From Myxococcota bacterium (lineage in GTDB: Bacteria; Myxococcota_A; SURF-8): DNA of 64,000 bases. Below are positions 1 to 63,769 of this stretch, in pieces (within the stretch, counting starts at the first letter, position 1; the number at the start of each line of letters is the position of its first letter). Made by a program: the position numbers and the translations under genes. The notes under the pieces were generated by a model that had not been told where the DNA came from, made no database searches, and saw only the letters and a list, made by a program, of their open reading frames with translations. The stretch is taken from the NCBI GenBank assembly GCA_965140415.1, contig OZ223209.1:2592001-2656000 (forward strand), written 5' to 3'.

Positions 1-14
1 AAGTACTGAGCAAC

Positions 15-617
15 ATGCAAAGCCAAGGATTACTCGTTTTTCTGCTATTCGGTTTTTTATACTGGTTGGGGATGGTCCCATACATGAACTTGTTCAGCAT
101 TTTTCTTCACGAGCAACTGCAACAACAGGGATTCACTGATGCTGGAGTTTGGATCGGAATTGCATGGGCGATCAGCACAATTACCGAATTTGTTTTTTTT
201 GTCATTTCGAACCGGGTGATTCGTCGACTTAGTGTAGAGGTTCTTTTTGCCAGCCTTATTCTTGCTTCATTGCTGCGTTATGGCATCTATGCGATAGCGG
301 CTCCAGTGTGGTTGATACTGATCGGACAGGCATTGCATTGTCTGGGATTCGCATTGTTTTATCTATTGGGTACCCGACTGATTGCCAGCAAGGCTCCCGC
401 GCAGATGCGAAACAGCTATCAGACGCTTTGGGCGAGTAGTGTGATTGGAGGTGCGGGATTCTTCGGAGGTGTTATAGCCGGATTTCTAGCAGGCATCATG
501 TCCGTTGAACGGATTTACTGGTTTTCTTTTTTCTCGGTCCTTGTAAGCGTCCTTCCATTGATTGTCTACCTGAAGAGTCACCCAATAGACAAAGAACGAC
601 TGATTATTGGGGAGTAG
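15..617 (+). CDS. MFS transporter, C-terminal half (gene probably starts upstream of the window)
   Basis: About 6 hydrophobic helices; MFS_1-like motifs (WAISTITEFVFF, GQALHCLGFALF). Confidence 0.75.
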   Translation: MQSQGLLVFLLFGFLYWLGMVPYMNLFSIFLHEQLQQQGFTDAGVWIGIAWAISTITEFVFFVISNRVIRRLSVEVLFASLILASLLRYGIYAIAAPVWLILIGQALHCLGFALFYLLGTRLIASKAPAQMRNSYQTLWASSVIGGAGFFGGVIAGFLAGIMSVERIYWFSFFSVLVSVLPLIVYLKSHPIDKERLIIGE

Positions 618-742
618 CTGTCTGAATTGGTCAACATTACTATTGCCCTGTTGTACTTTCCATCGATTTACCTTCTGTACACCACAGTGCACCAAAAACA
701 AATGGGCTAGAGGCATTTCTTCCTCTAACCCATTGTTATGTC

Positions 743-819
743 TGGTACGCCTACCCAGATTCGAACTGGGAACCAACGGGTTCGAAGCCCGGTACTCTAT
801 CCAGTTGAGCTATAGGCGC
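743..819 (-). tRNA. tRNA-Arg (anticodon UCG), reconstituted copy at the left junction of the island
   Basis: Reverse complement folds as GCGCCTA-TA-GCTC-AACTGGATA-GAGT-A-CCGGG-CTTCGAA-CCCGT-TGGTT-CCCAG-TTCGAAT-CTGGG-TAGGCGT-ACCA; encoded CCA; Arg identity A20 in the D loop. Confidence 0.95.
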
Positions 820-820
820 A
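781..820. repeat. Left att direct repeat (5' half of tRNA-Arg through the anticodon loop)
   Basis: TTCGAAGCCCGGTACTCTATCCAGTTGAGCTATAGGCGCA, identical to 14875-14914. Confidence 0.95.
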
Positions 821-843
821 CATGCTCACGACGAACGACGCGA

Positions 844-872
844 ACTATATGGCACGACGAAGGAATTGTCAA
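844..872 (-). promoter_or_regulatory. Island-supplied sigma70 promoter for the restored tRNA-Arg
   Basis: Minus strand TTGACA (872-867), 17 nt, TATAGT (849-844), ~25 nt upstream of tRNA position 1. Confidence 0.8.
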
Positions 873-920
873 TTCTTTCCGATGTCGAAAAGCGTCTGAT
901 TCACCCGCTACATAGCAATA

Positions 921-939
921 TTGGACCAGAATTGGACCA
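921..939 (+). repeat. Putative integrase arm-type sites (left)
   Basis: TTGGACCA twice with 11-bp periodicity; the same pair recurs at 14752-14769. Confidence 0.65.
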
Positions 940-1064
940 AAACCAGAACGCACCTTGAACATTCCTACCACCTACATCCGTCATCCTGCAAATTATTCCC
1001 TGTTTTCTTGCATTTCTTTTTTTCGCTTCCATGCCTGTAGAATGGGGACAAGAAAGGAGCGGTT

Positions 1065-2192
1065 ATGTCCAAACCGACAAGGCACGGAAACAGATTGAGG
1101 ATAAGGTGGATGGATGAGAACGGGAAAAGGCATTATGAAAGCTTCCCCTTGGACCAGTATGATCTCGCGGCTCTCATGCTGAAGCGCCATAAACAAGCGG
1201 TAGAGGAAATCAAGATGTGTCTTTGTACCGGCAGCGTGCCTAAGAGAACCTTCAGTCAGTTGGCCGATTACTGGCTTGAAGTCTACGCGCCAACAAAACG
1301 CTCGTATCGTGACGATAAGAGCATAATCGACGCGCACCTTCGCCCCACCTTCGGTAAGATGCAGCTTTCCGACATAGGTGTCCAACACGTGGACAGATAT
1401 CGCGCTGCACGGTCCCATCTGGCGGTTAAAACCCTAAGAAATCACATCGTTTTGTTCAAGTCGATGCTGAAAAGAGCTTTTGAAATAGGGTGGCTACGAT
1501 CAGTACCACCTATCAAGCCGCCGAAAGTGCCCAAAAACGGTCAGGATTTCAACTATCTCAAATCGAAGGATGAAATCCGCAGATTCCTTGTAGCGGCTGA
1601 AGAAGAAGGACAGCTTATCTATACTCTCTACAAGACCGCTGTTTTCACGGGAATGCGCGTGGGAGAACTTACGGGTCTGCGATGGGATGATATTGATTTC
1701 GCAAGACGAATTATTACCGTTCAACGTAGTTTCAACAAGCCAACGAAGAACAGTGAGATTCGCCATGTTCCTATCGTTGATGTTTTCTTAGATGATCTGC
1801 ATAAACTGGCCTTGAATCGCCCCCATCCCATGATCGTATTTCCGAATCAGAGAAACAATATGCAGTGCCAGAAGGCGCGAGCCTTCAATGAGATTTTCCA
1901 CAGAGTTTTGAAAAGAGCCGAATTTCCGGAAGTGGAGAGAAACGGAAAGATGCGTCCATACATCCGTTTCCATGACCTACGCCATACATTTGCCAGCCAT
2001 TGGTTGATGGAAGGCGGCGATATTTTCAAGCTACAACGCATTCTGGGTCACAAGTCGCAGGAAATGACACAGCGATACGCACATCTTTCCCCGGATGCAT
2101 TTTCAAAGGATTTTGGGCTGTTTGGCGGCAGGGGAGACATGGACACAGGGAAAGTCTTGGACTTAGCAAAAACGGGGACCAACAGCAACTAA
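1065..2192 (+). CDS. int: Tyrosine recombinase / phage-type integrase
   Basis: GMRVGE (R), FHDLRH (HxxR), LGH...TQRY (H,Y); N-terminal arm-binding-like segment; next to the att site. Confidence 0.95.
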   Translation: MSKPTRHGNRLRIRWMDENGKRHYESFPLDQYDLAALMLKRHKQAVEEIKMCLCTGSVPKRTFSQLADYWLEVYAPTKRSYRDDKSIIDAHLRPTFGKMQLSDIGVQHVDRYRAARSHLAVKTLRNHIVLFKSMLKRAFEIGWLRSVPPIKPPKVPKNGQDFNYLKSKDEIRRFLVAAEEEGQLIYTLYKTAVFTGMRVGELTGLRWDDIDFARRIITVQRSFNKPTKNSEIRHVPIVDVFLDDLHKLALNRPHPMIVFPNQRNNMQCQKARAFNEIFHRVLKRAEFPEVERNGKMRPYIRFHDLRHTFASHWLMEGGDIFKLQRILGHKSQEMTQRYAHLSPDAFSKDFGLFGGRGDMDTGKVLDLAKTGTNSN

Positions 2193-2196
2193 AACC

Positions 2197-2212
2197 GCGC
2201 AATCGATTGCGC
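2197..2212. promoter_or_regulatory. Perfect 16-bp palindrome GCGCAATCGATTGCGC (putative operator, copy 1)
   Basis: Sits just before the xis RBS; identical copy at 3499-3514 and 12-bp core at 12209-12220. Confidence 0.65.
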
Positions 2213-2230
2213 AAGCGAAGGAGGTAAGCA

Positions 2231-2437
2231 ATGCAAATTGAAAACAGTATTTTAACGTACAAGGAAGCCAGTGAGTATCTAAACATCAAGCTCGCGACCC
2301 TTTATGGTCTCGTTCACGAGAAACGTATTCCCCATTTTCGGCTTGGGGCGCGCATGGTTCGGTTTCGCCAATCCGAATTGGATCGATGGATGGAGGAAAA
2401 GTATGTCGAAGCGAAGGCGATGGAAAGCCATGCCTGA
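2231..2437 (+). CDS. Excisionase-like HTH_17 DNA-binding protein
   Basis: LTYKEASEYLNIKLATLYGLV...IPHFRLGARMVRF pattern; GGAGG RBS; directly after int. Confidence 0.85.
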   Translation: MQIENSILTYKEASEYLNIKLATLYGLVHEKRIPHFRLGARMVRFRQSELDRWMEEKYVEAKAMESHA

Positions 2438-2643
2438 GGACGCAAACAGCGGCATGGCCAATGCCGAAAAGAGAACCGCCCCTGGCGGGGGGCGGCTCTT
2501 CTAAAACTTGGCGTGATGGGATATCACGCGCTCAGCACCCTCACTATAGCGGAATATCCCCTCTCATGCCAACTGAAATCGAAAGGAAAATGCTCAGATG
2601 AGCGAGGTCTACAAGTATCAATTTCAAACGAGAGGAGTGAGCT

Positions 2644-3444
2644 ATGGCCAGCAGACACCTTTTAGTTCTCGGAGGAGTACAGAAACATCTGTACAAATTG
2701 ATCGAACGCTGGATAAACGGGGAGGATATCGAGTCATTCGATAAATACGAACGAAGAGCGATAACTCTCTACCAAATTGGTGAGGAGAAACAAGCAGGAA
2801 GGCTTTATGCCTGTGCGAACAATAAAGATCATCCTCTCAGTCGATTTGGTTATTACTGTCGCAACAGATTATGTCCGGGATGTGGAAGTTACATTTCCAG
2901 ACAGTATTTCTACAAGCAGCAAAAAGCTATCAAGAAAATGAGGAATCCCAAAGCAATTCTTTTCACGATCTATTCTTTTGGTATGAACGATCTCGTAGAA
3001 ACCATCGATCTCTTCAATGAGGCAAAGCGGAAGATCAGTCGACGGATAGCTTTCAAGCAAGCCGTTCGCGCCATGTCAGGTGTGATAGAGCCGAAACTAT
3101 CCGAGGATGGTCAACGATTCGCGGTCCATTCGCATGCAGCAGTGGATGTGGATGAGGACTATTTCGATATCGATGAATTGAACGCCATATGGAAGAAGTA
3201 TACCCATGGACGAGGAAAGATCGAGTTTCAGTGGGATGAGGACATTAGAGAAGGGGACGAAGAAAAATTCGCGTGGTATGGAAGCAAAGAACACACTTGG
3301 TCGCCGGAACCGAATTTTCTGAATGACGACTGGATCGAATATCTCCGGAAGGGAATCAAATCAAAACGCCTGTACTTCCATTACTCTCCAGGAAGCTCCA
3401 AAAAAAAGGGCGTGGAATTGAAGGGTGAAAGACGATGCGCTTGA
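2644..3444 (+). CDS. Rolling-circle HUH replication initiator (Rep_1/pC194-like)
   Basis: Zn motif CRNRLCPGC, motif 1 ILFTI, HUH motif HSHAAV, motif 3 WYGSK (YxxK); GAGGAG RBS. Confidence 0.7.
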   Translation: MASRHLLVLGGVQKHLYKLIERWINGEDIESFDKYERRAITLYQIGEEKQAGRLYACANNKDHPLSRFGYYCRNRLCPGCGSYISRQYFYKQQKAIKKMRNPKAILFTIYSFGMNDLVETIDLFNEAKRKISRRIAFKQAVRAMSGVIEPKLSEDGQRFAVHSHAAVDVDEDYFDIDELNAIWKKYTHGRGKIEFQWDEDIREGDEEKFAWYGSKEHTWSPEPNFLNDDWIEYLRKGIKSKRLYFHYSPGSSKKKGVELKGERRCA

Positions 3445-3469
3445 CAGCAATAGTCTTTAATATTATAAT
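3441..3469 (+). promoter_or_regulatory. Perfect-consensus sigma70 promoter
   Basis: TTGACA (3441-3446), 17 nt, TATAAT (3464-3469). Confidence 0.85.
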
Positions 3470-3498
3470 GAATACAGGTAGTTACGATATTTTGCCCT

Positions 3499-3514
3499 GC
3501 GCAATCGATTGCGC
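3499..3514. promoter_or_regulatory. Palindrome GCGCAATCGATTGCGC (putative operator, copy 2)
   Basis: Lies between the consensus promoter and ATG 3540. Confidence 0.65.
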
Positions 3515-3539
3515 GGACACAACATCAAACGATGGCCAG

Positions 3540-4637
3540 ATGAAAAGGAATCCTTTCCAACTCAGCCTTTTCGATAGAAATCAAAACGACATTAGAGTTG
3601 AGAATAGCGATGGTTCAATCAGTAGGGTGAAACAAGGCTCCCGCTGTTCCTGCGGTTCGAATCAATCCTGCGAACACTTCAGGCAAGCCCGTCTCTACCT
3701 CGATATGGATCGGGGGCTTTTCTATGACGGCAAAAGCGGATTTCACAAGTCAATTCGTCTCGCGGAGGTTGAGCGCTCCCTTGCTTATGCCCGCATACTT
3801 GATCGCTACAAGAAAGGCACGGCTCGTTCCTATCTTCGAGGTATCTGGGCCGAGGAAACCAGAAATCTCGATCTTCTTGCTCGTTTCTACGATGGAACGC
3901 CAACAGAAGAACTCATTGAACTGTTCTGCCGTAGCTGTAAAGATTGGCAGTGCCCTGAAGACGTAGGGATATTTTCTCGTCGCTGGCTTGAGATTCATCT
4001 TCGTTTCGGTTGCAATCCAAGTGCTGATTGGGAAGTAAGCTATCCTTGGCCAAACGAGGAGAACATCAAGCTAACCATCGCCCAGATGATTGAGGCGGAT
4101 GATTTCGATTCGCTTCTGGAAATGGTTGTCTGTGCAACGAGTTTCGGGCCAACTTCGACTCGATATCGAAAGGCTGTCCGATTTGCGCTTGTTGAAGAAG
4201 TAATGAAGCGCGCAAAGTTGCTGAACGTCCCGCCTGTGGTCGAAAAGCTGAAGGCAACATCATATCACAGTGAGGAATTGGTGGCCCTCTGGCGCATCCT
4301 GGCGGGCAAACGGAACAGTGGGGATGACGAGTACTGTAACAAACCAGTTCAAGGTCGAGAACAAATGGATGTGCCTTTCGTTGAAGACTACGTTTTCGAT
4401 ATGCACACCCGCGAAGGTAAACGACGCCTGAGAAAAGCTGGTCATTTGCTCGCTTGGGAAAAGCCTATGGCGGCAGGAATCGACCTTCGGTATTCGGGGG
4501 CGGAGGCTGGAACTCTTTGGAGATACCTTGCATGGGAGCAACATGGGAGAATCGATGTCCCGTGGGAAGCTGTCAAACTTGATGAAGAACTTTCACTGGT
4601 ATGGAAAAGCCTCATTGGAGGGAGGTTGACGACATGA
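3540..4637 (+). CDS. Hypothetical protein: N-terminal QLSLF clamp-binding-like motif, SWIM-like Zn finger, RarA/MgsA C-terminal-like domain
   Basis: PFQLSLFD; CSCGSNQSCEH; FYDGKSGFHKSIR and YVFDMHTREGKR. Start moved from 3435 to 3540 because the promoter lies inside the longer ORF. Confidence 0.6.
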   Translation: MKRNPFQLSLFDRNQNDIRVENSDGSISRVKQGSRCSCGSNQSCEHFRQARLYLDMDRGLFYDGKSGFHKSIRLAEVERSLAYARILDRYKKGTARSYLRGIWAEETRNLDLLARFYDGTPTEELIELFCRSCKDWQCPEDVGIFSRRWLEIHLRFGCNPSADWEVSYPWPNEENIKLTIAQMIEADDFDSLLEMVVCATSFGPTSTRYRKAVRFALVEEVMKRAKLLNVPPVVEKLKATSYHSEELVALWRILAGKRNSGDDEYCNKPVQGREQMDVPFVEDYVFDMHTREGKRRLRKAGHLLAWEKPMAAGIDLRYSGAEAGTLWRYLAWEQHGRIDVPWEAVKLDEELSLVWKSLIGGRLTT

Positions 4638-5683
4638 AACCGGAACAGGCGGAAAAGCCGATACAAACCCAAAATCTGTATTCTCGGCCCCAAAAACAGG
4701 AGGCTATTCCAGACAATCTTCGCTTCCTTTGGCGGGACGGAATCATTGAAAGCGAGAGCGAAAAGGAACGTCAGGCAAACGAGGAATACCTGAAGCACTC
4801 CCATGCCGAAAGCACTCTCGAAATCTACGGATACGATTGGCGAGAGTTTCTGGCTTTCTGTTCTAAAAGCGACCCTCCCGTTGCATCGCTTCCAGCCGAA
4901 CCGGAAACGATCCTGAGCTTTCTTCGCTGTCAGGCTGAACAGAATCACAAGCCTTCAACAATCACTCGGAAACTGTCGGCCATCCGGTGCTACCATCTGG
5001 AGGCAGAAGTTGAAACGATTCCGACCGACAATCCCAAGGTCAAGCGGATGATGGCGGCGATCCGGCGATTGAAAGGCGTTATGCCGGAACAGAAGAAACC
5101 GCTAACCATTCAACGCCTGAATGCGATCATCGAGAAATGCCCCCCGACCTTGTGCGGCTGTCGGGATAAAGCCATGTTGCGGCTCGGCTTTGCCGGTGGC
5201 TTTCGCAGATCGGAACTGCTTGCCTTGCGGATGGAGGATATCGATCTTTCTGAGGTCGGGGTTGAGATTTTAATAAGACGTTCGAAAACCGATCAAGAAG
5301 GTTATGGAAGGCTGTTGTCCATACCCAGGAAGGACGTTCCCTTGACCTGTCCTGTCGCTGCATTGGAAGAATGGATCGAACGGGGAATGATCCGAGAAGG
5401 CCCCATCTTTCGACGGCTGTATAAAGGCGACAAAGTAGGCGAAACGGCGATCACGGGGCGTTCGTTCGCGAAAATCATCGACAAGTATGTGGAGCAGGTT
5501 GGACTCGATCAGGAGGACTTTAGCCCCCACGCCTTGCGCGCGGGATTTGTTACGAGCGCATACAGAAGCGGAGCCTCCATCGCTCAAATTCAGGGCGTTA
5601 CCGGACACAGAAGCGCGCAATCCGTTCATCGCTACGTTCGCGGCATCGATGGCTTTCGAGAGTACCCGAATATCGAGGAATAA
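4634..5683 (+). CDS. Second tyrosine recombinase (Cre-like/resolvase type)
   Basis: RDKAML..GFRRSEL, RSKTDQ, PHALRAG, TGHRS..VHRY; ATG 4634 has a GGAGG RBS and overlaps the upstream stop (ATGA). Confidence 0.9.
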   Translation: MKPEQAEKPIQTQNLYSRPQKQEAIPDNLRFLWRDGIIESESEKERQANEEYLKHSHAESTLEIYGYDWREFLAFCSKSDPPVASLPAEPETILSFLRCQAEQNHKPSTITRKLSAIRCYHLEAEVETIPTDNPKVKRMMAAIRRLKGVMPEQKKPLTIQRLNAIIEKCPPTLCGCRDKAMLRLGFAGGFRRSELLALRMEDIDLSEVGVEILIRRSKTDQEGYGRLLSIPRKDVPLTCPVAALEEWIERGMIREGPIFRRLYKGDKVGETAITGRSFAKIIDKYVEQVGLDQEDFSPHALRAGFVTSAYRSGASIAQIQGVTGHRSAQSVHRYVRGIDGFREYPNIEE

Positions 5684-6147
5684 TGAGCGAGGACTTTTCC
5701 CTCATTCGCCAACTGGCCGCAGAGATGGCAAGCAATCTCTTCTACGATGAAATCGAGGGGATCACCCGCTACCATGAAGAAATCGGTTGGCATCTGGCTG
5801 CGCTCTACGAGGTTCATAGGGCGGTGATGGGCTGTGAGTATCCGCTTGCAAACGAAGCAATTTTAGCTGAAGTTCGCGAACGGCTGAACGATGTTATCGA
5901 GGCAAAAAGCTACGAGGACGCGAGAGACGTCATCCTGTTGATCGATGGGGAGGAAAACATATCTGTTCTGCTTCGCTGGTTGGCTGAAACTCCGAATTTC
6001 GTATCCTTCGTGGAAGAAGCGATTGAGGATAAACTTGACGGCGACCGCCCAAGATTTTCCCGGCTTCTCTATTGGGGGAACATGCGGTTCAGGCAGGAAG
6101 TAGGACTTAGCTTGTTGGATGCGTTGCGGGGAATAAATCAGGGGTAA
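5683..6147 (+). CDS. Acidic hypothetical protein
   Basis: TAATG coupling to the recombinase; about 30 D/E versus 15 K/R in 154 aa. Confidence 0.65.
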   Translation: MSEDFSLIRQLAAEMASNLFYDEIEGITRYHEEIGWHLAALYEVHRAVMGCEYPLANEAILAEVRERLNDVIEAKSYEDARDVILLIDGEENISVLLRWLAETPNFVSFVEEAIEDKLDGDRPRFSRLLYWGNMRFRQEVGLSLLDALRGINQG

Positions 6148-6328
6148 TTGGTGTACGATAGGCTCAGAGTTTACCCGAAAACAAGATCAAGGTTGCATTT
6201 AAAAGTCCCGTCATTCATTTCGCAGAAACAAAATTTATCATCATGATATTGCAGAGGAATCATTTGATATTTGTGTGTTGCTTGTTCGTAGAAAGCATAT
6301 GATGTTTGCGCCAAAATCCCAACCTGTC

Positions 6329-6784
6329 TCAAAAATCAATGTCTTCAAGTTTTAGGTCTTCTCCCCGACGCGGTAGCCATAATGGCGCAAGTTCCCATTC
6401 AGGTAATTTTGCCCCCGGAATAGCTTGAGATCGGATAATGGCCTCCAGAACACCATTTACACGCCATTCCTCCATGCGACGAGATATGGTTTGAAAAGGA
6501 GGGTAGCCCATCAAAGAGATATCTCTAAGCGACAGCTGCGTCTTTGCCCTAAGAAGGATGGCTTCTGCCATAATTCGATCTGGTACGCGAGGTCTTCCCC
6601 TTCGGCATCGTCTTTCGGGAATATGGGGCTTGATCTTGGCCCATGCTTCATCAGAAAGAATCTCTTTATGTGCAGCTTCGGGCAATTTGTATTTACCTTT
6701 GATGGTTGATGGCAACATGATTGGCTCCCTGATACAATGACGGATAACTTTCTTCATTTTAACTGGGTGTTTGGTGCACATCAA
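6329..6784 (-). CDS. IS5-family (IS427-like) transposase N-terminal DUF4096/HTH protein with no DDE partner
   Basis: LSDEAWAKIKPHIP...RRGRPRVPDR...PPFQTISRRMEEW..NGV; start codon uncertain. Confidence 0.65.
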   Translation of the reverse strand: MMCTKHPVKMKKVIRHCIREPIMLPSTIKGKYKLPEAAHKEILSDEAWAKIKPHIPERRCRRGRPRVPDRIMAEAILLRAKTQLSLRDISLMGYPPFQTISRRMEEWRVNGVLEAIIRSQAIPGAKLPEWELAPLWLPRRGEDLKLEDIDF

Positions 6785-6896
6785 GGGATTCTATTAAAAG
6801 TATTCGACACGTTAGGCATGGTCTGGTAGACTCTAAGGCGGAGTGTAAAGGTCGAAATATTCGGCTGATACGTTGCTTATCGCAAAGTAGGAGACA

Positions 6897-9800
6897 ATGG
6901 GAAAGTCGTTGGAATTAAACGAGTTATTGGAAGGACTCGGTTACTTGGGGTCGGACTATTTCCTCAAGGGGGCAGAGCTTCAGCGTCACCCGGCCTACGC
7001 CCATTTTTTCCGAAAAGCCAGCGAAGACCTTCATCTTAAAGGCGTGTACTGCCTTAGAGCGAGACCTGAATGTAAAATAGATCAGGATACCGTTGTTCCT
7101 GTCGTTTATGTGGTCGAGCTAGATTCGGATGATCCTGAATCAATTCAAAAGTGGCACCGAAAGGTTTGGAATCAGAGCATCGTTCCTTTTGTTTTACTGG
7201 CCACGCCGTCAAGTTTCAGAGTGTATCGTGGCTTCAGGCATTCGGACGATATAAAAAAAGATACAGTTCTTGATGATCTTCGAGATGCCGCAGAAATACT
7301 GGAGCGTTTCAAGGATTTTTCGGCAAGGTCGATAGATTCCGGTGCAATTTGGGAGCGTATGCAGAAGCATCTTGACCTTGATGCAAGGGTTGACAACCGA
7401 CTCCTTAAAAACCTTGAAGATCTTGGCAACAAACTTATTAAGGAGCAAGGTTTAAACAGAAGGGTTGCCCACACTCTCATTGGGAAATATGTCTTCCTCA
7501 GATATTTAAGAGACCGAAAGCACCTATCGGATAAAAAGTTCCAAGATTTTGGAATCAGTCCTAATGATGTATTCGATTCCCAGGCAAAAATCAGTTCCCT
7601 GTACGAATTGGACGAAAAGCTAAACAACTGGCTCAATGGTGCAATTTTTCCTCTCCCAAAGAGAAGTGGTGAAATCAAAGAGGAGCATGTTAAGGAAGTT
7701 GCGAGAGCTTTTCGAGGGGAAAACCCTAAACACAAACAGACAGAAATGTTTGATGTATTCAATTTTGAGTACGTTCCGGTCGAAACTCTTTCCGCTGTTT
7801 ACGAGCAATTCCTTCATTTCGATGGCAAGGGGAAAGAGCAGGGTGCTTTCTATACCCCTGTCCATCTGGTCAATTTCGTTCTTGAAGAGCTTGATACTAA
7901 ACGGCCATTAAGAGACGGTATGAAAGTACTTGATCCCTCTTGTGGGTCAGGAGCTTTTCTTGTTCAATGTTACCGACTATTGATCGAACGCGAAGTACAG
8001 CCAAGCCCCGAAAAAAAGATCCTTCCCTCCAGATTGCGAGAACTACTGGAAAGGAACATCTTTGGACTGGATATTGATGGAGATGCTTGTAGTGTTACTG
8101 AATTGAGTTTGGCACTTACTTTACTTGATTATGTAGATCCGCCGGATTTGAAACGCTATCCAACCTTTAAACTGCCTGCATTACGAAACAGAAACATTTT
8201 TCATTGCGAAGGCGGTTTTTTCGATGAGTCCTCTGCCTGGAATCAATCTGAATCTGCGATAAATGGATATGATTGGATTGTTGGGAATCCCCCGTGGATA
8301 AAACTCAATTCCTCCATGAAAGGTAAAAGTGCAATATCTGCTCTGGAGTGGATGCGTGAGAAGCAGGAGGATTGCCCTACGGGTGATAATCAGATTGCAC
8401 AAGCATTTGCATGGAAAACCTCTTTGCATCTTTCACCGGAAGGTCTGGCTGGATTGGTAATGCCAGCAATGACGCTCTTTATGCCCAAGGCTAAGCGTTT
8501 CCGCCATCATTTTTTCGAGAATAATGATGTGTGGGCTATTGCCAATTTAGCAAACTTCACCTATCGGCTTTTTGCGGGTAGAGGAAGACTGCCAACAATG
8601 TTGCTGTTTTTCAACAACTCAGTTCCTGATGCAAGTGAAGAACAGTTTTTGACTGTATTTTCCCCTTTCATAGCGGAACAAGAAGCCAGTCGAGATTACA
8701 ATAATGGAGCTTGGAGCATAACAGTTGAACAAAACGCAATCAAACAAATTCCAAGAGACAAAGTAGCATCAGGCGACAGTTTGCCTTGGAAAGCTGCTAT
8801 GTGGGGGTCTTGGAGAGATTTGAATCTATTAAAAAGGATCGAAAGTCGATTCCCCTCCTTTTTAGATTTTGCTTCACAAAAAGAATTATCTATTCATCAG
8901 GGTATAGAGCTTAGAGAATGCGGCTCGTCGCAGGCAGTAGAACCAATGCCAGAATTGGCGGGTCAACCCATTATTGATATGGGAAAAATTAAGAAGAACA
9001 CTCGTAATCTATTTCATCTGCCGGATAATATACTATTTCCAATACCTCCAGAAAAAGCTAATATCAGAATTAGAGGAGGGAAAAGGGCACTCAGAACGAG
9101 TATACCACCGCATATTTTTGTTGATGCCTCACGTAATTATTCAATTTATTCAGACAGTCTTGTCCATATCCCAGCCCGCCAAATCGGAATTGCTGGACAT
9201 GATGAGAAATTACTAAAAGCACTTTCATTGTACTTGTCGTCAGATTTTGCAAAATACCATCAGTTTCTTTTCTCCGCGCAGTGGGGCATTCAAAAATCCA
9301 TTTCCAATCTTGAGACGTTACTAAAATTGCCCATACCTTTTTCCATAATCAATACATCACATATCAATTCATGGGCAAAGCTGCACAATGAATTTGTAAA
9401 AGCGTCGAAGCACATACATGGTGATTTGTTTGTCCAGAATTCATCGAAAAAGAATTATTCAGAGATATTGGATGATTTGAGGAAATCTCTGAATAATCGT
9501 GTATACGAATTGTTAGGATTGAATAACAGTGACCGTAACCTTGTTAAAGATCTCGTGAATGTTCGTATGCATCTTGTACAGGGCAAAGTGCCCAAAGCTG
9601 CAACACGGAGTGCAACCAAGTCTGAGATGGTGGAATACTGCCAGATTCTTGCAAAGGAGCTTGATGAATTTTTAGGCGTAAAGAAGCGTCATGATGTGAA
9701 TGTGTATGCAGGAACTAATAAGGCACTTTTGGTTGTGAGGAATCAGCGTGAACCTCGACCGAACGCAATAATCGATGTAACGCAGGATGAGCATTCATTC

Positions 9801-9995
9801 AATGCCGCTCTAGAAAAACTTGGAAATCTGGTTTCAAAAAGAAAGCAGTGGATGTACTTTGACAGAGGCTTACGGATATATAGCGGTGACCGCATTTGCT
9901 TGTTCAAACCGAAAAGCCGTTTGCATTGGCTTAAAAGCCAGGCGCTTCTCGATGCAGATGCAATTATTTCTGATCTCGTATCCCAGAAAGCTTGA
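6897..9995 (+). CDS. Large N6-adenine DNA methyltransferase with TRD (Type IIG/Eco57I-like architecture)
   Basis: GAFYTP, motif I VLDPSCGSGAF, GLDID, motif IV IVGNPPW; AGGAG RBS; AT-rich C-terminal TRD region. Confidence 0.9.
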   Translation: MGKSLELNELLEGLGYLGSDYFLKGAELQRHPAYAHFFRKASEDLHLKGVYCLRARPECKIDQDTVVPVVYVVELDSDDPESIQKWHRKVWNQSIVPFVLLATPSSFRVYRGFRHSDDIKKDTVLDDLRDAAEILERFKDFSARSIDSGAIWERMQKHLDLDARVDNRLLKNLEDLGNKLIKEQGLNRRVAHTLIGKYVFLRYLRDRKHLSDKKFQDFGISPNDVFDSQAKISSLYELDEKLNNWLNGAIFPLPKRSGEIKEEHVKEVARAFRGENPKHKQTEMFDVFNFEYVPVETLSAVYEQFLHFDGKGKEQGAFYTPVHLVNFVLEELDTKRPLRDGMKVLDPSCGSGAFLVQCYRLLIEREVQPSPEKKILPSRLRELLERNIFGLDIDGDACSVTELSLALTLLDYVDPPDLKRYPTFKLPALRNRNIFHCEGGFFDESSAWNQSESAINGYDWIVGNPPWIKLNSSMKGKSAISALEWMREKQEDCPTGDNQIAQAFAWKTSLHLSPEGLAGLVMPAMTLFMPKAKRFRHHFFENNDVWAIANLANFTYRLFAGRGRLPTMLLFFNNSVPDASEEQFLTVFSPFIAEQEASRDYNNGAWSITVEQNAIKQIPRDKVASGDSLPWKAAMWGSWRDLNLLKRIESRFPSFLDFASQKELSIHQGIELRECGSSQAVEPMPELAGQPIIDMGKIKKNTRNLFHLPDNILFPIPPEKANIRIRGGKRALRTSIPPHIFVDASRNYSIYSDSLVHIPARQIGIAGHDEKLLKALSLYLSSDFAKYHQFLFSAQWGIQKSISNLETLLKLPIPFSIINTSHINSWAKLHNEFVKASKHIHGDLFVQNSSKKNYSEILDDLRKSLNNRVYELLGLNNSDRNLVKDLVNVRMHLVQGKVPKAATRSATKSEMVEYCQILAKELDEFLGVKKRHDVNVYAGTNKALLVVRNQREPRPNAIIDVTQDEHSFNAALEKLGNLVSKRKQWMYFDRGLRIYSGDRICLFKPKSRLHWLKSQALLDADAIISDLVSQKA

Positions 9996-10687
9996 TTGAG
10001 GCCGTAACGCTTATGGCAGGTATATCCAGACACAAAATCAACCAAATCGGCAAATCTGCCCTTGCAGATGAATTTCAAACCTCTTTCCTGCGAAATGCCT
10101 TGGAATTGTTATTAATCGGCTATGAAAACCTACCAACCAGTGATAGATCGAAGTGGCAGGAGGAAGAAATTACCGGCGAACTATGCAGAGAGATTCAGGA
10201 ATATCTAGATATGCCGGATTCCCCTGGTTGGACTAGACGCTATTCGCTTCATGAAGATCCGCCTGTTCATTCATCCTACAGAAAAGGAAAGAAGCGCAGG
10301 CGAATTGATTTTCGGATTGAGGAAACCCACCGACGGCCTCGCCACAAGTTCGGAGTAGAAGCAAAAAGGCTCCGTTCCGATTCCCACAATGTTGGGAAAT
10401 ACTGCGGACAAGATGGGATGGGGTGCTTTGTTTCAGGAGAATATTCGTCTCAGCAAAATATCGGCGGAATGCTTGGCTACGTTCAAAGCGGAACAGTCGA
10501 TCAGTGGGAATCCAAGGTGGGAGCAAAGATTAAGAAAGATGCAAAAACCTTGCATGTAAGGAACGGACGAACTTGGGAAAATGCTTCCGGCGCAAACCCC
10601 ATAAATCAATGCCACCTTTCCGAGCACGATAGACCGAGTTTAAATAAACCAATACTAATTTATCATCTGATGCTGAATTTCAGCTGA
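9992..10687 (+). CDS. Putative PD-(D/E)XK nuclease partner of the MTase
   Basis: EEEIT...HE...RRIDF...GVEAKRL...GMLGYV; overlaps the MTase stop (alternative ATG at 10013). Confidence 0.6.
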   Translation: MIEAVTLMAGISRHKINQIGKSALADEFQTSFLRNALELLLIGYENLPTSDRSKWQEEEITGELCREIQEYLDMPDSPGWTRRYSLHEDPPVHSSYRKGKKRRRIDFRIEETHRRPRHKFGVEAKRLRSDSHNVGKYCGQDGMGCFVSGEYSSQQNIGGMLGYVQSGTVDQWESKVGAKIKKDAKTLHVRNGRTWENASGANPINQCHLSEHDRPSLNKPILIYHLMLNFS

Positions 10688-10815
10688 CTGAAAAACTTTC
10701 ACTTCTTCAACAACCGCCTCCCATCATCCACGGTCATCATGAGTCGCTTGGGAATTCGTTTTCCCCAGTAATAAGGTGATTCCATAGCCGATATTGCAAC
10801 CCCCTCTAAAAACAT

Positions 10816-10844
10816 TTGCCTCAAAGTTATCATAAGTTTATACT
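10816..10844 (+). promoter_or_regulatory. Putative sigma70 promoter
   Basis: TTGCCT, 17 nt, TATACT, ~250 nt upstream of ATG 11091. Confidence 0.5.
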
Positions 10845-11090
10845 CTTATCGTTCGATGAAATTCCCTTGCGTTCTGCCTTTTGGCTGACGGCCTGACTAC
10901 CCGTGATCGAATGCATGGCTTTGCCATTGAACGAACAAAGTGGCTCACACGACGCGCGCCTATCACGCGCCGTGCTAGTCACACGTGCGCCTCTGATGGG
11001 AGGGGCGCATGTGATGGTGTGAGCCATGTTGCATGTCGCCCCTTTCTTTTAGGGGCAGATTGACGATTCTTGAAGCAAGGCGGTGCGCAT

Positions 11091-12161
11091 ATGAAACGAA
11101 TGTTTCTTTCGATTGTTCTCGTTATTCTTCTTCTGGCATGTGGCAACGATCAGACGACAAATTCACCAGATAACACGGATGGGGACGCCCCATTGACGGA
11201 CGGAGACATGGAGGACTGCCCGCCGGGGACGCATCTCTGCCCATGCTACGGCAATGATACCTGCAATGCGGGTCTTGATTGCCGCGATAGTATTTGCGTC
11301 GAAAGCGATGATACGACGGACGGAGACGGGGAGCGTGAAGTTGATGAGCCCCTTGATTCAGATGGCGATCTGCTCCCGGATGGAGATGATACAGATGGCG
11401 ATGCTTTCGATGCCGATTTTGATGAAGACTTACTCGAAAACTCTGACGGTTCGGACGGTGATTTCGAGCTTGATATAGAGCCAGATGATGAGATCGAACT
11501 TGATGACGATTTCGAGTCTGAAAGCGATCCAGAGCTTGATGAGGAAGTATCAGACGATGAAAACGGTGTCGAATACGAGCCGGATGATGAGATGGAACCA
11601 GAAGTTGATGTAGAGATTGAAACCGAGCTTGAAGCAGAACAGGAAGAAGAACCTCCATACGAACCTATCTGGAGAGATCCTGATACTCTTTTGTATTGGC
11701 CGTTGACGCGAGATGCTGGTACTTGGTCAGAGTCCGAGCAGTATTGCGAGGATCTTGAATGGGGAGGGCATTCGGACTGGCGCTTGCCGACTGTAACTGA
11801 GTTGCGCTCGCTTATTCGAGGATGCGGTGCAGACCTTGATAGCGATTGCATGGTTTTTGAGGATGATCGTGATCTTGGAGTTAACAGCCAGTGTATCTAT
11901 GAGACTTGTGACAGCATGTATTGCGTTGGAATGCAGGAGCCGTGCGAGATTGAAGAGTGTGAGAAGTGCCCTTTTGTTTATAACCAGTGCTACTGGCCGG
12001 AGGTGTTTGGTACATGTCCATCGTCGGCAGATTATTGGTCCTCGACTGCGGAGCGATGGGGCATGGAAGAGGAACACTGGTATGTAGGGTTTAAGCATGG
12101 CTCTGTCATTTGGGGACGTGACAGTTACGTTAAGGGTGCAAGATGTGTACGCAGGAGGTGA
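11091..12161 (+). CDS. Lipoprotein with acidic DGD linker and C-terminal DUF1566 (Lcl_C) domain
   Basis: Lipobox LLLAC; WRDPDTLLYW, YCEDLEWGGHSDWRLPTVTELRSL, YWSST, ARCVR. Confidence 0.85.
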   Translation: MKRMFLSIVLVILLLACGNDQTTNSPDNTDGDAPLTDGDMEDCPPGTHLCPCYGNDTCNAGLDCRDSICVESDDTTDGDGEREVDEPLDSDGDLLPDGDDTDGDAFDADFDEDLLENSDGSDGDFELDIEPDDEIELDDDFESESDPELDEEVSDDENGVEYEPDDEMEPEVDVEIETELEAEQEEEPPYEPIWRDPDTLLYWPLTRDAGTWSESEQYCEDLEWGGHSDWRLPTVTELRSLIRGCGADLDSDCMVFEDDRDLGVNSQCIYETCDSMYCVGMQEPCEIEECEKCPFVYNQCYWPEVFGTCPSSADYWSSTAERWGMEEEHWYVGFKHGSVIWGRDSYVKGARCVRRR

Positions 12162-12208
12162 CTTCAATGCGTGTAAGTGTGAGAAGTCAGGATGCGAAAA
12201 ATGATTGA

Positions 12209-12220
12209 GCAATCGATTGC
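12209..12220. promoter_or_regulatory. Palindrome core GCAATCGATTGC (putative operator, copy 3)
   Basis: Intergenic, upstream of the SEL1/MORN lipoprotein. Confidence 0.5.
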
Positions 12221-12304
12221 GTGTCTTCAAACAAGAATTCGTTCTGGACGACAGGTGCAATTGTTCGGAGATTCGATACTGGTTTAGCCTTGAAGGAGGT
12301 AGGG

Positions 12305-13762
12305 ATGCTCGAACGCTTGTCTTCACTGGTCGCAATTGCGTTGCTGTCCGCTCTGGTCGCCGCGTGCAGTATCTTGGGATGGGAATACAGTTACTCTGGC
12401 CGAAAATATACGATGAGCCAAGATCACATTGACTATCACCGGGAAGTTATGGCTGATTACGAGCGAAAAACGAATTCTGCCAAGCGCGCAGGCAAGAGTG
12501 AGGCGAATATCCTGACTATGCAATGCAAGCTGCTTGAGCGTGGGTTATCAGGCGCTCCGAAGTCCTCGAATTTCACTTCTGCGACCCAGTTGCTTCAGAA
12601 GGATCGAGATAGTATTTGTCCCCAGGCACAGCAGGCGCGAAGCTCGGCTAGTGGTATTGGCGGGCCTTGCCCTGAGGGAACACATGTCATGCGAAAGCCC
12701 GATCACGAATATTGCGCAGACTCAAACCAATTTCCGAATGGGTGGTATATCGCTTGGCATGGAAAGCGTCGTATCAAGAAAAGAACCGGCAACCCTGCCA
12801 CTGACCTTTACTATCCACCGGAAGGGCTTGTGAAACGCGAGGCTGGTCAAATTGTCGGAGGCAAGAGAGGTGGTGAGTGGACGTTCTGGTATGCTAGCGG
12901 AAAGAAGAAAGCTCAGGGACGTTATGATAGTGGCAATAAAGTGGGTACCTGGAATTATTGGCGAGAAGATGGTACCCCATTAACCCCTCAAGAACTTTTC
13001 CAGTTAGCGACTGACCTGTTGGCAAACAATGGTAGAGAAAAGGCCTTGGAGCTTGCGGAAACATGCTATGGGTATTGGCCGGAGAATGGCAAATGCCAAT
13101 CGATACTTGCTCAGGCTACATGCGATGCAGATGATTTAAGTGGTTGTTATGTAGCGGCCTCAAAACTACGACAATCTGATGTCAGGGGCTTTTTGGCAAT
13201 ACATGAAACCCTCTGTCGAAACTTTCAGGCATCGTCATGCGAAGCACTCGCAATATTTTTCAAAATTGGCAGTGGACCAGCGAAGTACAACAACGGAGTA
13301 GAAATCCCGGCGAACGCATCGAAATCCAAATCGCTCTATAAGAAGGCAATGACTTATTACAAATCCGCCTGTGATTTAGGAGATGGTGCAAGTTGTGATG
13401 GATTAGCGAATGGTTACGCATCAGGCAACGGAGTCTCTAAAAACCTGCCAAAGGCAAAGATGTACTTCAGGAAAGGCTGTGAATTGAACCATTGGGCATC
13501 ATGCCGGTCTTATTCCACTCGGTTTAACTACGATGATCCTGTAGGTGCATTTGCTATGTTGACCAAAGCCTGTGAAAACGGAGATGAACTAGCGTGCAAA
13601 GACCGCGTCTATCAATTGAATGAGTCTAAACAGCTTTGTAAGCAGGGCAACAAAGATGCTTGTTTCTATCTTGGCTTAACTGTCGAAGATAAATCCAAAG
13701 CTAGAACCTACCTGAAACGATCCTGCGATCTTGGACACTCCGGAGCATGCAGCGAGTTGTAG
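12305..13762 (+). CDS. Lipoprotein with MORN-variant (YwqK-like) repeats and Cys-rich SEL1/Hcp-like repeats
   Basis: AAGGAGGT RBS before ATG 12305; lipobox LVAAC; GEWTFWYASGKKKAQGRY; YKSACDLGDGASC..LA.GY..GNGV repeats. Confidence 0.85.
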   Translation: MLERLSSLVAIALLSALVAACSILGWEYSYSGRKYTMSQDHIDYHREVMADYERKTNSAKRAGKSEANILTMQCKLLERGLSGAPKSSNFTSATQLLQKDRDSICPQAQQARSSASGIGGPCPEGTHVMRKPDHEYCADSNQFPNGWYIAWHGKRRIKKRTGNPATDLYYPPEGLVKREAGQIVGGKRGGEWTFWYASGKKKAQGRYDSGNKVGTWNYWREDGTPLTPQELFQLATDLLANNGREKALELAETCYGYWPENGKCQSILAQATCDADDLSGCYVAASKLRQSDVRGFLAIHETLCRNFQASSCEALAIFFKIGSGPAKYNNGVEIPANASKSKSLYKKAMTYYKSACDLGDGASCDGLANGYASGNGVSKNLPKAKMYFRKGCELNHWASCRSYSTRFNYDDPVGAFAMLTKACENGDELACKDRVYQLNESKQLCKQGNKDACFYLGLTVEDKSKARTYLKRSCDLGHSGACSEL

Positions 13763-13973
13763 GGACTGAGACATCTCTCATTCGGTTGAACAAAGAAGTT
13801 CTAAGGAATCAACTGGCTCTATAAAGCTGACATACAGCCTGACTTGACCTCATACCCGAATATAGACCGAAAGCCGCTCACAAAGCCATTACGGAGTCCT
13901 ACGGAATAATTATGAGGGTGTTGTTACTTACAATCTTGAGCCATCGATTTCGTGAAAGTAGGAGCAGGGTTGC

Positions 13974-14759
13974 TCAGGACTCAGAACCATCTTCTGAGGT
14001 GTCATCAATCGCGGATTCTTCATCCATATCTTGGTTGTAGTCAGGATCGTAATCAAGATCGCATTCAGAATCTACCTTATCGATTGCTTCAATCGCAGCG
14101 TTGGTTTGCTGCCTGTTGTATCCAAGACAACTCAAAGTGAAACGCAGAAGCTGTCTCTTGTTGACCAGTTTGCCAAAGTAGACAGGAAACGGGGAAAGGG
14201 ATGGTTCATTTCTGAAGTTGTAAATCGTCCGTGCACCCATCTGGAGGTATTCTGCAACATTTTTTTGAGCGATTTCCACCTTTCCTTTTTTTCTGCCGTC
14301 AACATTTGGTGGCTTCAGTTCTTTGAGGGACTCTACAATGATGGAATCAACTGTGTCTGGATCGTTATCCAAAGAAAGCTCCTCATCATTGAGAGAGACC
14401 CATAGTGGTTTTGCAGTACGAACAAGCTCAATCGTTAATTCCTCGTGCCGCTCGGGTGGAATGGGTCTTTTTTTTCTCCAAGTTCCCCAGTATAGTTGAG
14501 CTATGGTTTCACTAAGTTTCACGATACGCCAGTGGCGGAGACGCTCGGAATCAATTGCATCAAGGTGATCTTTTTTGAGGACATAGAGTAATTTGAGGAT
14601 GCGTTTTTCCTTCGCGTTTGCTTTACCAATATCAGAGAGGCGCAATGAGGCACAGAATCGAAGGAGCCTTGCAAGGAACTTATCAAGCTCGACTATGAAC
14701 GTATGGTAATCTTCTTCGTCGATCTCTTTCATTTTTTTGTCATCCGTTTTCTGGACCAT
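13974..14759 (-). CDS. Hypothetical protein with probable HTH and acidic tail
   Basis: AQKNVAEYLQMGARTIYNFR is HTH-like; 261-aa ORF at the right end of the island. Confidence 0.55.
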   Translation of the reverse strand: MVQKTDDKKMKEIDEEDYHTFIVELDKFLARLLRFCASLRLSDIGKANAKEKRILKLLYVLKKDHLDAIDSERLRHWRIVKLSETIAQLYWGTWRKKRPIPPERHEELTIELVRTAKPLWVSLNDEELSLDNDPDTVDSIIVESLKELKPPNVDGRKKGKVEIAQKNVAEYLQMGARTIYNFRNEPSLSPFPVYFGKLVNKRQLLRFTLSCLGYNRQQTNAAIEAIDKVDSECDLDYDPDYNQDMDEESAIDDTSEDGSES

Positions 14760-14769
14760 CGTTGGACCA
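14752..14769 (+). repeat. Putative integrase arm-type sites (right)
   Basis: TGGACCA and TTGGACCA with 11-bp periodicity, same as 921-939. Confidence 0.6.
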
Positions 14770-14801
14770 AATCCCAGGCAAAGGTGGAAAGAATGCCATG
14801 C

Positions 14802-14830
14802 TTGACAAGGAAGTATACTGGGAATACTAT
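14802..14830 (+). promoter_or_regulatory. Outward-facing sigma70 promoter at the island right end (would read into int in the excised circle)
   Basis: TTGACA (14802-14807), 17 nt, TACTAT (14825-14830). Confidence 0.65.
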
Positions 14831-14874
14831 GAATATGGAAGCGTGAAAAGGCGGAAAAGGGCTAGGTAGGAATT

Positions 14875-14914
14875 TTCGAAGCCCGGTACTCTATCCAGTT
14901 GAGCTATAGGCGCA
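14875..14914 (-). repeat. Right att direct repeat = displaced host 5' half of tRNA-Arg
   Basis: Identical to 781-820; identity ends exactly after the anticodon loop CTTCGAA. Confidence 0.95.
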
Positions 14915-14926
14915 AAACAACTTGCC

Positions 14927-14957
14927 AGTATGTACGTCAGATTTCGATCCTTGTCAA
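14927..14957 (-). promoter_or_regulatory. Probable original host tRNA promoter
   Basis: Minus strand TTGACA (14957-14952) followed by TACATACT -10-like region just upstream of the tRNA 5' fragment. Confidence 0.5.
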
Positions 14958-15223
14958 ATTTTAGTGCTAATCCGACCTGAACAATTTTTCCGCGTTGGGC
15001 CACAAACTGTTTCAGTTTAAGGGTAAGCATTGCAGATCTTCTAAAAAATCAGCATGTTAGCTCGCTCTTCAATGTTGTGCGTATGCTTTCTTCACATCAC
15101 TGCTTCAATAAAGCCTTAACATTTTCTTAACGCGGTGCTAATATTCCTATTCTTTTCCGCCAACGTACAGAAAATTAACCTGTTGTCCAAAGTGACTTTG
15201 TTTACTGGCAAGCGAGGATAATC

Positions 15224-63691: not shown

Positions 63692-63769
63692 GCCCCCATA
63701 GCTCAGCTGGATAGAGCACAGGATTCCTAATCCTGGCTAGCGCAGGTTCGAGTCCTGCTGGGGGCACCA
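63692..63769 (+). tRNA. tRNA-Arg (anticodon CCU)
   Basis: GCCCCCA...CAGGA-TTCCTAA-TCCTG...GCAGG-TTCGAGT-CCTGC-TGGGGGC-ACCA. Confidence 0.95.

Follow-up and report, generated by a model that had tools for sequence, protein, structure and literature searches.

An integrative element in the anticodon loop of a tRNA-Arg gene that appears to replace the 5' half of the gene and to carry a promoter for it

The single tRNA-Arg(UCG) gene near the left end of the window, by which we mean the whole 64,000-nucleotide stretch of a Myxococcota bacterium genome analysed here, probably houses a plasmid-like integrative element of 14.1 kb. In the explanation that we hold with good confidence, the element is inserted in the anticodon loop of this gene, its attP carries the tRNA segment in inverted orientation, the rebuilt tRNA gene is driven by a promoter of the element, and the original promoter of the host is stranded at the far end. 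The layout itself is a known, catalogued minority class among tRNA-associated islands and not a new principle. Two of its details are instructive, namely the flip of polarity relative to the rest of the integrase family and a promoter that was probably captured.

ARAGORN identified the minus strand of positions 743–819 as an intact tRNA-Arg gene with the anticodon tcg (UCG). Rfam scored it as a tRNA at 63.7 bits, and this was the only Rfam match with E ≤ 1 within positions 1–16000. The repeat search revealed a 40-nt direct repeat of 100% identity (family D3), in which 781–820 equals 14875–14914. In the numbering of the tRNA strand, the repeat covers positions -1 to 38 and stops at the last base of the anticodon loop. 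It comprises the acceptor arm, the D arm, the 5' side of the anticodon stem and all 7 nt of the loop. The recurrence of a perfect 40-mer within 14 kb is far beyond chance. A BLAST search of the tRNA sequence against the whole genome found two copies only, the gene at 743–819 and the fragment at 14875–14914; tRNA-Arg(UCG) is a single-copy gene in this genome. The fragment was called as a tRNA by neither ARAGORN nor Rfam, and it lies in the same orientation as the gene at a distance of 14 kb, upstream with respect to the tRNA strand. The repeat search and the two tRNA programs thus agree with the initial annotation, which had described 781–820 and 14875–14914 as a duplication of the tRNA's 5' half up to the end of the anticodon loop. 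The annotation had further taken the intact gene to be a composite of a host 3' half and an island-side 5' half. This reading is supported as well, since recombination across the 40-bp blocks places 821–14874 on the element. The intact gene would accordingly consist of 743–780 from the host and a 5' half supplied by the element. The left copy of the identity block is the att core, in which the anticodon loop (781–787) is the putative crossover segment, and the right copy is the displaced 5' tRNA fragment of the host.

The genome also encodes tRNA-Arg(ACG) and tRNA-Arg(CCG). By the standard wobble rules, these two tRNAs suffice for all four CGN codons. tRNA-Arg(UCG) is therefore probably dispensable, and its silencing may carry little cost. 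A second tRNA gene of the window, tRNA-Arg(CCU), lies at its far end (63692–63769, plus strand).

The element occupies positions 821–14874, approximately 14.1 kb between the 40-nt repeats. Next to the left repeat lies a gene for a tyrosine integrase of 375 aa (1065–2192, plus strand; Pfam Phage_integrase, E 6.2e-31). Its open reading frame is intact, lies 245 nt from the core, and is divergent from the tRNA gene. Residues R198, K228, H303, R306, H329 and Y338 of the integrase are kept in at least 95% of 33 aligned sequences. It is followed by an HTH_17/AlpA-like protein of 68 aa (2231–2437, plus strand), an excisionase candidate according to Pfam and PHROG 66 (excisionase and regulator), with homologues in the island stretches of seven of eight relatives. 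A Rep_1-like replication protein (2644–3444, plus strand) scored 34.6 bits with Pfam Rep_1 against a cutoff of 33.2 and has a homologue in the island of one relative (L123). On the host side, the left flank contains the C-terminal part of an MFS transporter gene (3–617, plus strand; Pfam MFS_1_like, E 9.7e-16) and, downstream of the tRNA gene, a terminator-like hairpin (701–734, minus strand) with a 13-pair stem followed by a T-run. The right flank begins with the gene of a conserved 933-aa protein (15224–18025, plus strand), which shares 58% identity with its homologue in the related genome G004 and 49% with that in G007; the promoter region of this gene can be aligned with the corresponding regions in both genomes.

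A promoter-like site was found upstream of each of the two tRNA 5' halves. The element-side site, here called U, is TTGACA-17-TATAGT on the minus strand (872→844); it matches the consensus at 11 of 12 positions, with a predicted transcription start near 837. The consensus scan that detected it gave two promoter-like sites in 500–1200, compared with 1.1 ± 1.0 in shuffled sequences. The initial annotation had placed an island-borne TTGACA-17-TATAGT 25 nt upstream of the tRNA. We recovered the site, but place the end of its second hexamer 24 nt ahead of tRNA +1, which is within the range of 12–64 nt for the other tRNA promoters of the genome. The displaced fragment is preceded by a second site, here called A, with the sequence TTGACA-17-TACATA (14957→14929, minus strand; 9/12), which ends 15 nt before the fragment's +1. 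A was missed by the standard consensus scan; its second hexamer, TACATA, is weak and ends in A, and a second hexamer ending in A is common to many tRNA promoters of this genome. In the 5.98-Mb genome, the pattern TTGACA-N17-TA was counted 231 times (1.9e-5 per strand position); for a 100-nt stretch, the probability of such a site is about 1.4e-3. The pattern nevertheless precedes 12 of the 48 tRNA/tmRNA genes within 100 nt, and it precedes the fragment by 15 nt. These features suggest that A is the original tRNA promoter of the host, now orphaned. From their consensus matches, both U and A are predicted to be active promoters.

The region around U resembles a chromosomal promoter of a relative. 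A promoter and leader block at 820–880 (minus strand) is homologous to the tRNA-Arg(UCG) promoter of G004, which belongs to a different genus of the same family as the window genome. The two are identical at 45 of 61 positions in an ungapped alignment, a value reached by none of 100,000 shuffles (maximum 33). The next-best upstream region among the other tRNA/tmRNA genes of the window genome reached 21/61 against the G004 promoter, and A reached 15/61. In a BLAST search of 41 relatives, a match extending upstream of the tRNA was obtained in G004 only (80% over 138 nt, E 3.9e-29), and the tRNA itself is most like that of G004 (86% identity). In G004, an S41 peptidase gene precedes this promoter by 240 nt; the gene was found in none of the other nine tRNA-bearing loci tested, and none of the integrase-family matches of G004 adjoins the promoter. 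In the window genome, the orthologue of the S41 peptidase adjoins tRNA-Arg(UCU). Since U ends up on the element when the 40-nt blocks recombine and is homologous to the G004 promoter, capture is the simplest reading: U and the 5' half were probably taken from an earlier, related host and not invented by the element. The element copy of the 5' half equals the host copy at 40 of 40 positions. The 5' half of G004 differs at two positions, one of which is compensated in its 3' half, and the donor of U is therefore not G004 itself but an unsampled lineage.

We made a side observation at the corresponding loci of G004 (L038) and a further relative, G001 (L040). They share a closely similar terminator/trailer over about 70 nt downstream of tRNA-Arg(UCG), while their promoters are unalike (12/61). 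The flanks of tRNA-Arg(UCG) may have undergone exchange by mobile DNA in relatives too.

Our survey of the integrase family revealed a uniform polarity outside the window. The family was present in 91 of 401 genomes of the phylum searched (E ≤ 1e-20). A first set of 32 loci, made up of 29 from the phylum search together with L046, L122 and L123, had a co-oriented tRNA gene 103–265 nt upstream of the integrase gene in 26 cases, no divergent tRNA gene, and no nearby tRNA gene in the remaining six; a separate ARAGORN run had detected tRNAs at 22 of the 29 loci from the phylum search. In a second set of 20 further loci, the tRNA gene was co-oriented in ten, divergent in none, and absent from the neighbourhood in ten. 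When pooled, 36/52 loci are classical, with the tRNA gene 97–269 nt upstream of the integrase gene, 0/52 are flipped, and 16/52 lack a nearby tRNA gene. L052, which has a partial integrase match (63%), is also of classical polarity. The initial annotation had proposed that homologous integrases be surveyed for duplications of the 5' half. In our survey, 36 of 52 loci were classical and 0 of 52 divergent. Scans of collections of genome and metagenome contigs gave no relative of the integrase closer than L046, with 50% full-length identity, and the partial match of L052. The targets in the examined loci are tRNA-fMet, several tRNA-Arg species, tRNA-Thr, tRNA-Asn and tRNA-Pro; tRNA-Arg(UCG) is the target in none of them. 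In a maximum-likelihood tree, the window integrase is nested within the family, and its sister is the classical tRNA-Met element L046 (support 96/93). This nesting within a classical family indicates that the flip is derived.

The family normally acts on the same part of the tRNA gene. We searched the island stretches of eight relatives, L046 included, for a distal direct repeat and found one in four of them, covering tRNA positions 33–77, 27–76, 32–76 and 32–75. These repeats start at 27, 32 or 33, and therefore the anticodon-loop sublocation is used and the 3' half is normally carried. The same sublocation is indicated in the window, where the identity block ends at position 38 and the CGGG/CCCG stems flank the loop; it is the site of the anticodon-loop (symmetric sublocation) integrase subfamily in the sense of Williams 2002, as that subfamily is defined in review text. 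The crossover accordingly appears to lie in the anticodon loop. The anticodon arm of tRNA-Arg(UCG) reads CCGGG-CTTCGAA-CCCGT in the sense direction and ACGGG-TTCGAAG-CCCGG in the direction of the integrase. It has the form CGGG-N7-CCCG on either strand, and its loop holds the palindrome TTCGAA. All 17 of the 17 tRNA-Met targets listed, including that of L046, read TCGGG-CTCATAA-CCCGA, and the stem words common to these targets and tRNA-Arg(UCG) are the same on both strands. In tyrosine recombination, such a near-twofold symmetry of the anticodon arm could permit either orientation.

The arm-type repeats of the element also follow the family pattern. TGGACCA has seven plus-strand copies in the 64-kb window. 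Four of them make up two tandem pairs spaced by 11 nt, and each end of the element has one such pair directly inside it (922/933 on the left, 14752/14763 on the right). The P' pair (921–944, plus strand; TTGGACCA twice with 11-nt spacing; D15) has the same motif upstream of the integrase gene in relatives, and the P pair (14752–14774, plus strand; TGGACCA twice with 11-nt spacing; D15) lies 100 nt from the loop. A tandem TTGGGCCA or a variant of it, at 11–12 nt spacing, is found between the tRNA and integrase genes in L046, L009, L011, L013, L014, L012, L017, L023, L119 and L124, and its orientation relative to the integrase gene is the same in the window as in every such relative. L119 and L124 also have the tandem pair in the distal arm. 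About 100 nt separate the distal arm pair from the anticodon loop in the window, L119 and L124 alike. On the integrase side, the gap between loop and arm pair amounts to 134 nt in the window, compared with 84–91 nt in the classical L046, L009 and L013. The longer distance fits a longer insert, that is, the 5' half and a promoter in place of the 3' half and a short trailer elsewhere. Tandem TTGGRCCA pairs thus occupy both arms of attP, are distinct from the core and are conserved in relatives, which at the level of sequence characterizes a heterobivalent (lambda-type) integrase. The element therefore appears to use the anticodon-loop site and the attP layout of its family with the tRNA segment inverted. 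The host-style promoter A, 15 nt upstream of the displaced fragment, together with family-typical arm repeats inside both ends at the P-arm spacing of the family, gives independent support to an element-side 5' half and upstream region. The proposal of the initial annotation that the element takes over the transcription of the tRNA is supported by this layout, in which U would drive the rebuilt gene; we add that U was probably captured.

A third promoter-like site, TTGACA-17-TACTAT (14802–14830, plus strand; 10/12 consensus matches), lies in the P arm and points outward. A similar TTGACAAG motif is found at the same place of the P arm in L119, L122 and L123. The predicted P-arm promoter would face the integrase gene across attP only in the circular form. 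Between the core and the integrase gene (821–1064), no plus-strand promoter site better than 7/12 was detected. Expression of the integrase may depend on circularisation, as a P-arm promoter of the TTGACAAG type is upstream of its gene only in the circle. At the right end of the element, an open reading frame of 261 aa (13974–14759, minus strand, from the ORF list) reads inward, and its start codon overlaps the P-arm repeat. This frame had no significant family in Pfam, PHROGs or NCBIfam, and only weak HTH_17 leads were obtained; its Atlas scores of 0.82–0.85 were under the useful level, and no homologue was found in the island stretches of the eight relatives. Between the fragment and this frame, there is no minus-strand promoter site better than 8/12. 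The only good promoter upstream of the 261-aa frame would be A in the integrated state and the tRNA promoter of the element in the circle.

We propose the following course of events. A tyrosine recombinase would have inserted 821–14874 site-specifically into the anticodon loop of the sole tRNA-Arg(UCG) gene. Along with the loop, the element would bring the 5' half and a promoter/leader of about 60–80 bp, whereas its relatives bring the 3' half and a trailer with theirs. On integration, the 3' half of the host and the 5' half of the element would be joined into an intact tRNA gene, which U (872→844) would drive. The host promoter A (14957→14929) and the original 5' half would be stranded 14 kb away, pointing into the right end of the element. 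U and the 5' half may have been captured, for example, via imprecise excision after a wrong-way insertion into the near two-fold symmetric anticodon arm. A more far-reaching reading, which we offer only tentatively, joins these points: one lineage of a family that restores the 3' half inverted the tRNA segment of its attP, as the symmetric arm permits, the inversion was fixed by capture of the 5' half and its native promoter from a former host, and promoters are swapped reciprocally on integration. If this tentative reading is true, the host tRNA is transcribed from a captured promoter, the stranded host promoter reads into the 261-aa frame, and the conserved P-arm promoter of the family faces the integrase gene in the excised circle only.

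These results indicate that the half of the tRNA gene restored by an element is not fixed by its integrase family, and that the same attP architecture, with its arm repeats and P-arm spacing, serves with the tRNA segment reversed. The reversed polarity demands a promoter, which was apparently supplied by carrying off a real tRNA promoter of an earlier host. The element illustrates concretely how new usage of att sites arises where the tRNA sublocation is symmetric. For genome annotation, 14875–14957 should be described as a 5' fragment with a live-looking promoter and not as a gene. Expression of tRNA-Arg(UCG) would now rest on mobile DNA.

The layout can be compared with several known systems. 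Table 1 of the Islander paper (Hudson, Lau and Williams 2015; PMC4383910) lists 3919 islands, of which 3760 have a 3' tDNA fragment and 159 a 5' fragment. This table, together with review text, bears out the statement of the initial annotation that most tRNA-targeting integrases restore the 3' portion. As the Islander text describes them, the 5'-fragment islands have the same intact tDNA with a same-orientation 5' fragment upstream, an internal tyrosine integrase, a length of 2–200 kb and a block ending at the anticodon loop, and from that description they show no difference in kind from the window element. The latter has a full tDNA with a cognate, same-orientation 5' fragment upstream on one replicon, an integrase inside and a length of 14.1 kb. 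A reverse-orientation element whose recombination involves the 5'-distal portion of a tRNA gene was reported by Zhao and Williams 2002 (J Bacteriol 184:859; PMC139527), as cited in PMC6563490; judged by its title and the citing text, it shares recombination at the 5' part with the window element. The pTN3-like (SSV-type) integrases of Thermococcales use the same attB, the tRNA 5' half, and the rebuilt tRNA is said to use a promoter of the element (PMC5495485; PMC8371274); Cossu et al. 2017 (PMC5495485) describe the rebuilt tRNA-Leu gene as cut off from its original promoter. In these systems, according to the same texts, attP is part of the integrase gene, integration splits that gene, and the tRNA is transcribed from the integrase promoter. 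In contrast, the integrase frame of the window element is intact, 245 nt from the core and divergent from the tRNA, and a separate promoter of tRNA type is supplied; it is not of the suicidal pTN3/SSV type.

Two further systems are similar in part. The arg2A-VII islands of Klebsiella (10.1101/2020.11.02.365908) are likewise described as lying upstream of a tRNA-Arg gene, unlike the other islands of that study; however, they are assigned to the D-loop sublocation and to a different integrase clade, whereas the window element uses the anticodon loop. The dusA-specific integrases (Farrugia et al. 2015, PMC4482086) are likewise described as inserting into their target at its 5' end; that target is a protein-coding gene. 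Our literature search, to which the key primary papers were external, met no statement of a polarity flip within an otherwise classical integrase family, nor any of a tRNA promoter that lies on the element side and is homologous to a chromosomal one in a relative.

No empty insertion site was seen among the 41 relatives searched, which include no conspecific; within this set, the window genome is the sole representative of its genus. The left flank (1–780) matched its own genome only among these relatives. The gene of the right flank has homologues in G004, G007, G015 and G023, and no tRNA was found within approximately 1.4–1.5 kb on each side of the match in the corresponding loci (L003–L006).

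The resemblance of U to the G004 promoter can be read in another way. U (820–880) could be the host's own, vertically inherited promoter, with the copy at 14875–14914 and its flank derived from a secondary rearrangement or an older event, so that no takeover occurred. It is in keeping with such inheritance that U matches the G004 promoter at 45/61 and A at just 15/61, that the tRNA is closest to that of G004 at 86% identity, and that a GC-rich stretch follows the second hexamer directly, as in the G004 promoter. A GC-rich stretch in this place is typical of stable-RNA promoters. However, with simple att × att recombination over the 40-bp block, U must belong to the element; inheritance needs a rearrangement, yet no other repeat brackets the element. 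A, with the genome's tRNA-type signature at the right distance, would then be a coincidence (about 1.4e-3), and the arm-type repeats stand at family-typical positions relative to both 40-nt copies. Vertical conservation is not to be expected either, because the promoters of the family members are unalike, as seen in G001 versus G004. We therefore regard a native U as unlikely and favor its arrival with the element.

The preferred explanation also takes U to be a working promoter and the assembly to be correct. It seems quite improbable that the layout is as described but that the tRNA is transcribed by read-through or from another start, or is a silent, dispensable gene. Silence would be tolerable with tRNA-Arg(ACG) and tRNA-Arg(CCG) able to read all four CGN codons, but U has 11 of 12 consensus matches at a distance seen for other tRNA promoters of the genome (12–64 nt) and is homologous to the promoter of a relative, and the tRNA sequence is intact at 63.7 bits. 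An assembly artefact, in which the element is a free circular replicon or otherwise joined and was threaded through the 40-nt repeat by the assembler, is in our judgement very improbable. The element does encode a Rep_1-like protein. No circular junction was seen. The stretch is present in three public runs of one study, for which no joints were reported; their k=31 contigs end inside the 40-nt repeat and fit the integrated and excised forms equally; the depth in those runs is one mean figure per contig, which cannot separate the forms. The genome was nevertheless assembled as a single 5.98-Mb contig, and a free circle would still bear the tRNA 5' half and its promoter, which implies the same attP and leaves the biology unchanged.

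The remaining genes between the repeats appear to be cargo. A second tyrosine recombinase (4601–5683, plus strand; Pfam) was considered as the att-site enzyme and rejected, as a tRNA lies within 1.5 kb in just 1 of 18 loci of its homologues. It is flanked by proteins of 400 aa and 154 aa without known family; the group spans 3435–4637 and 4601–6147 (plus strand) and may be a nested or separate recombination module. Pfam further identified a DUF4096 transposase fragment as well as Lcl_C and Sel1 proteins. An Eco57I/MmeI-like N6-adenine methyltransferase of 1032 aa (6897–9995, plus strand) was identified by Pfam, with NCBIfam matches below cutoff; it is BREX PglX-like under the family cutoffs and is followed by an overlapping 231-aa frame without known family. 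The genes of 6897–10687 (plus strand) are probably defence or restriction-modification cargo. A perfect palindrome of 16–19 nt with the core GCGCAATCGATTGCGC occurs three times in the element, at 2195–2213, 3498–3516 and 12205–12221 (D4, I6, I25). These sites lie directly after the integrase gene, directly after the Rep-like gene and directly before the Sel1 gene, and the palindrome may serve as operator, origin or terminator.
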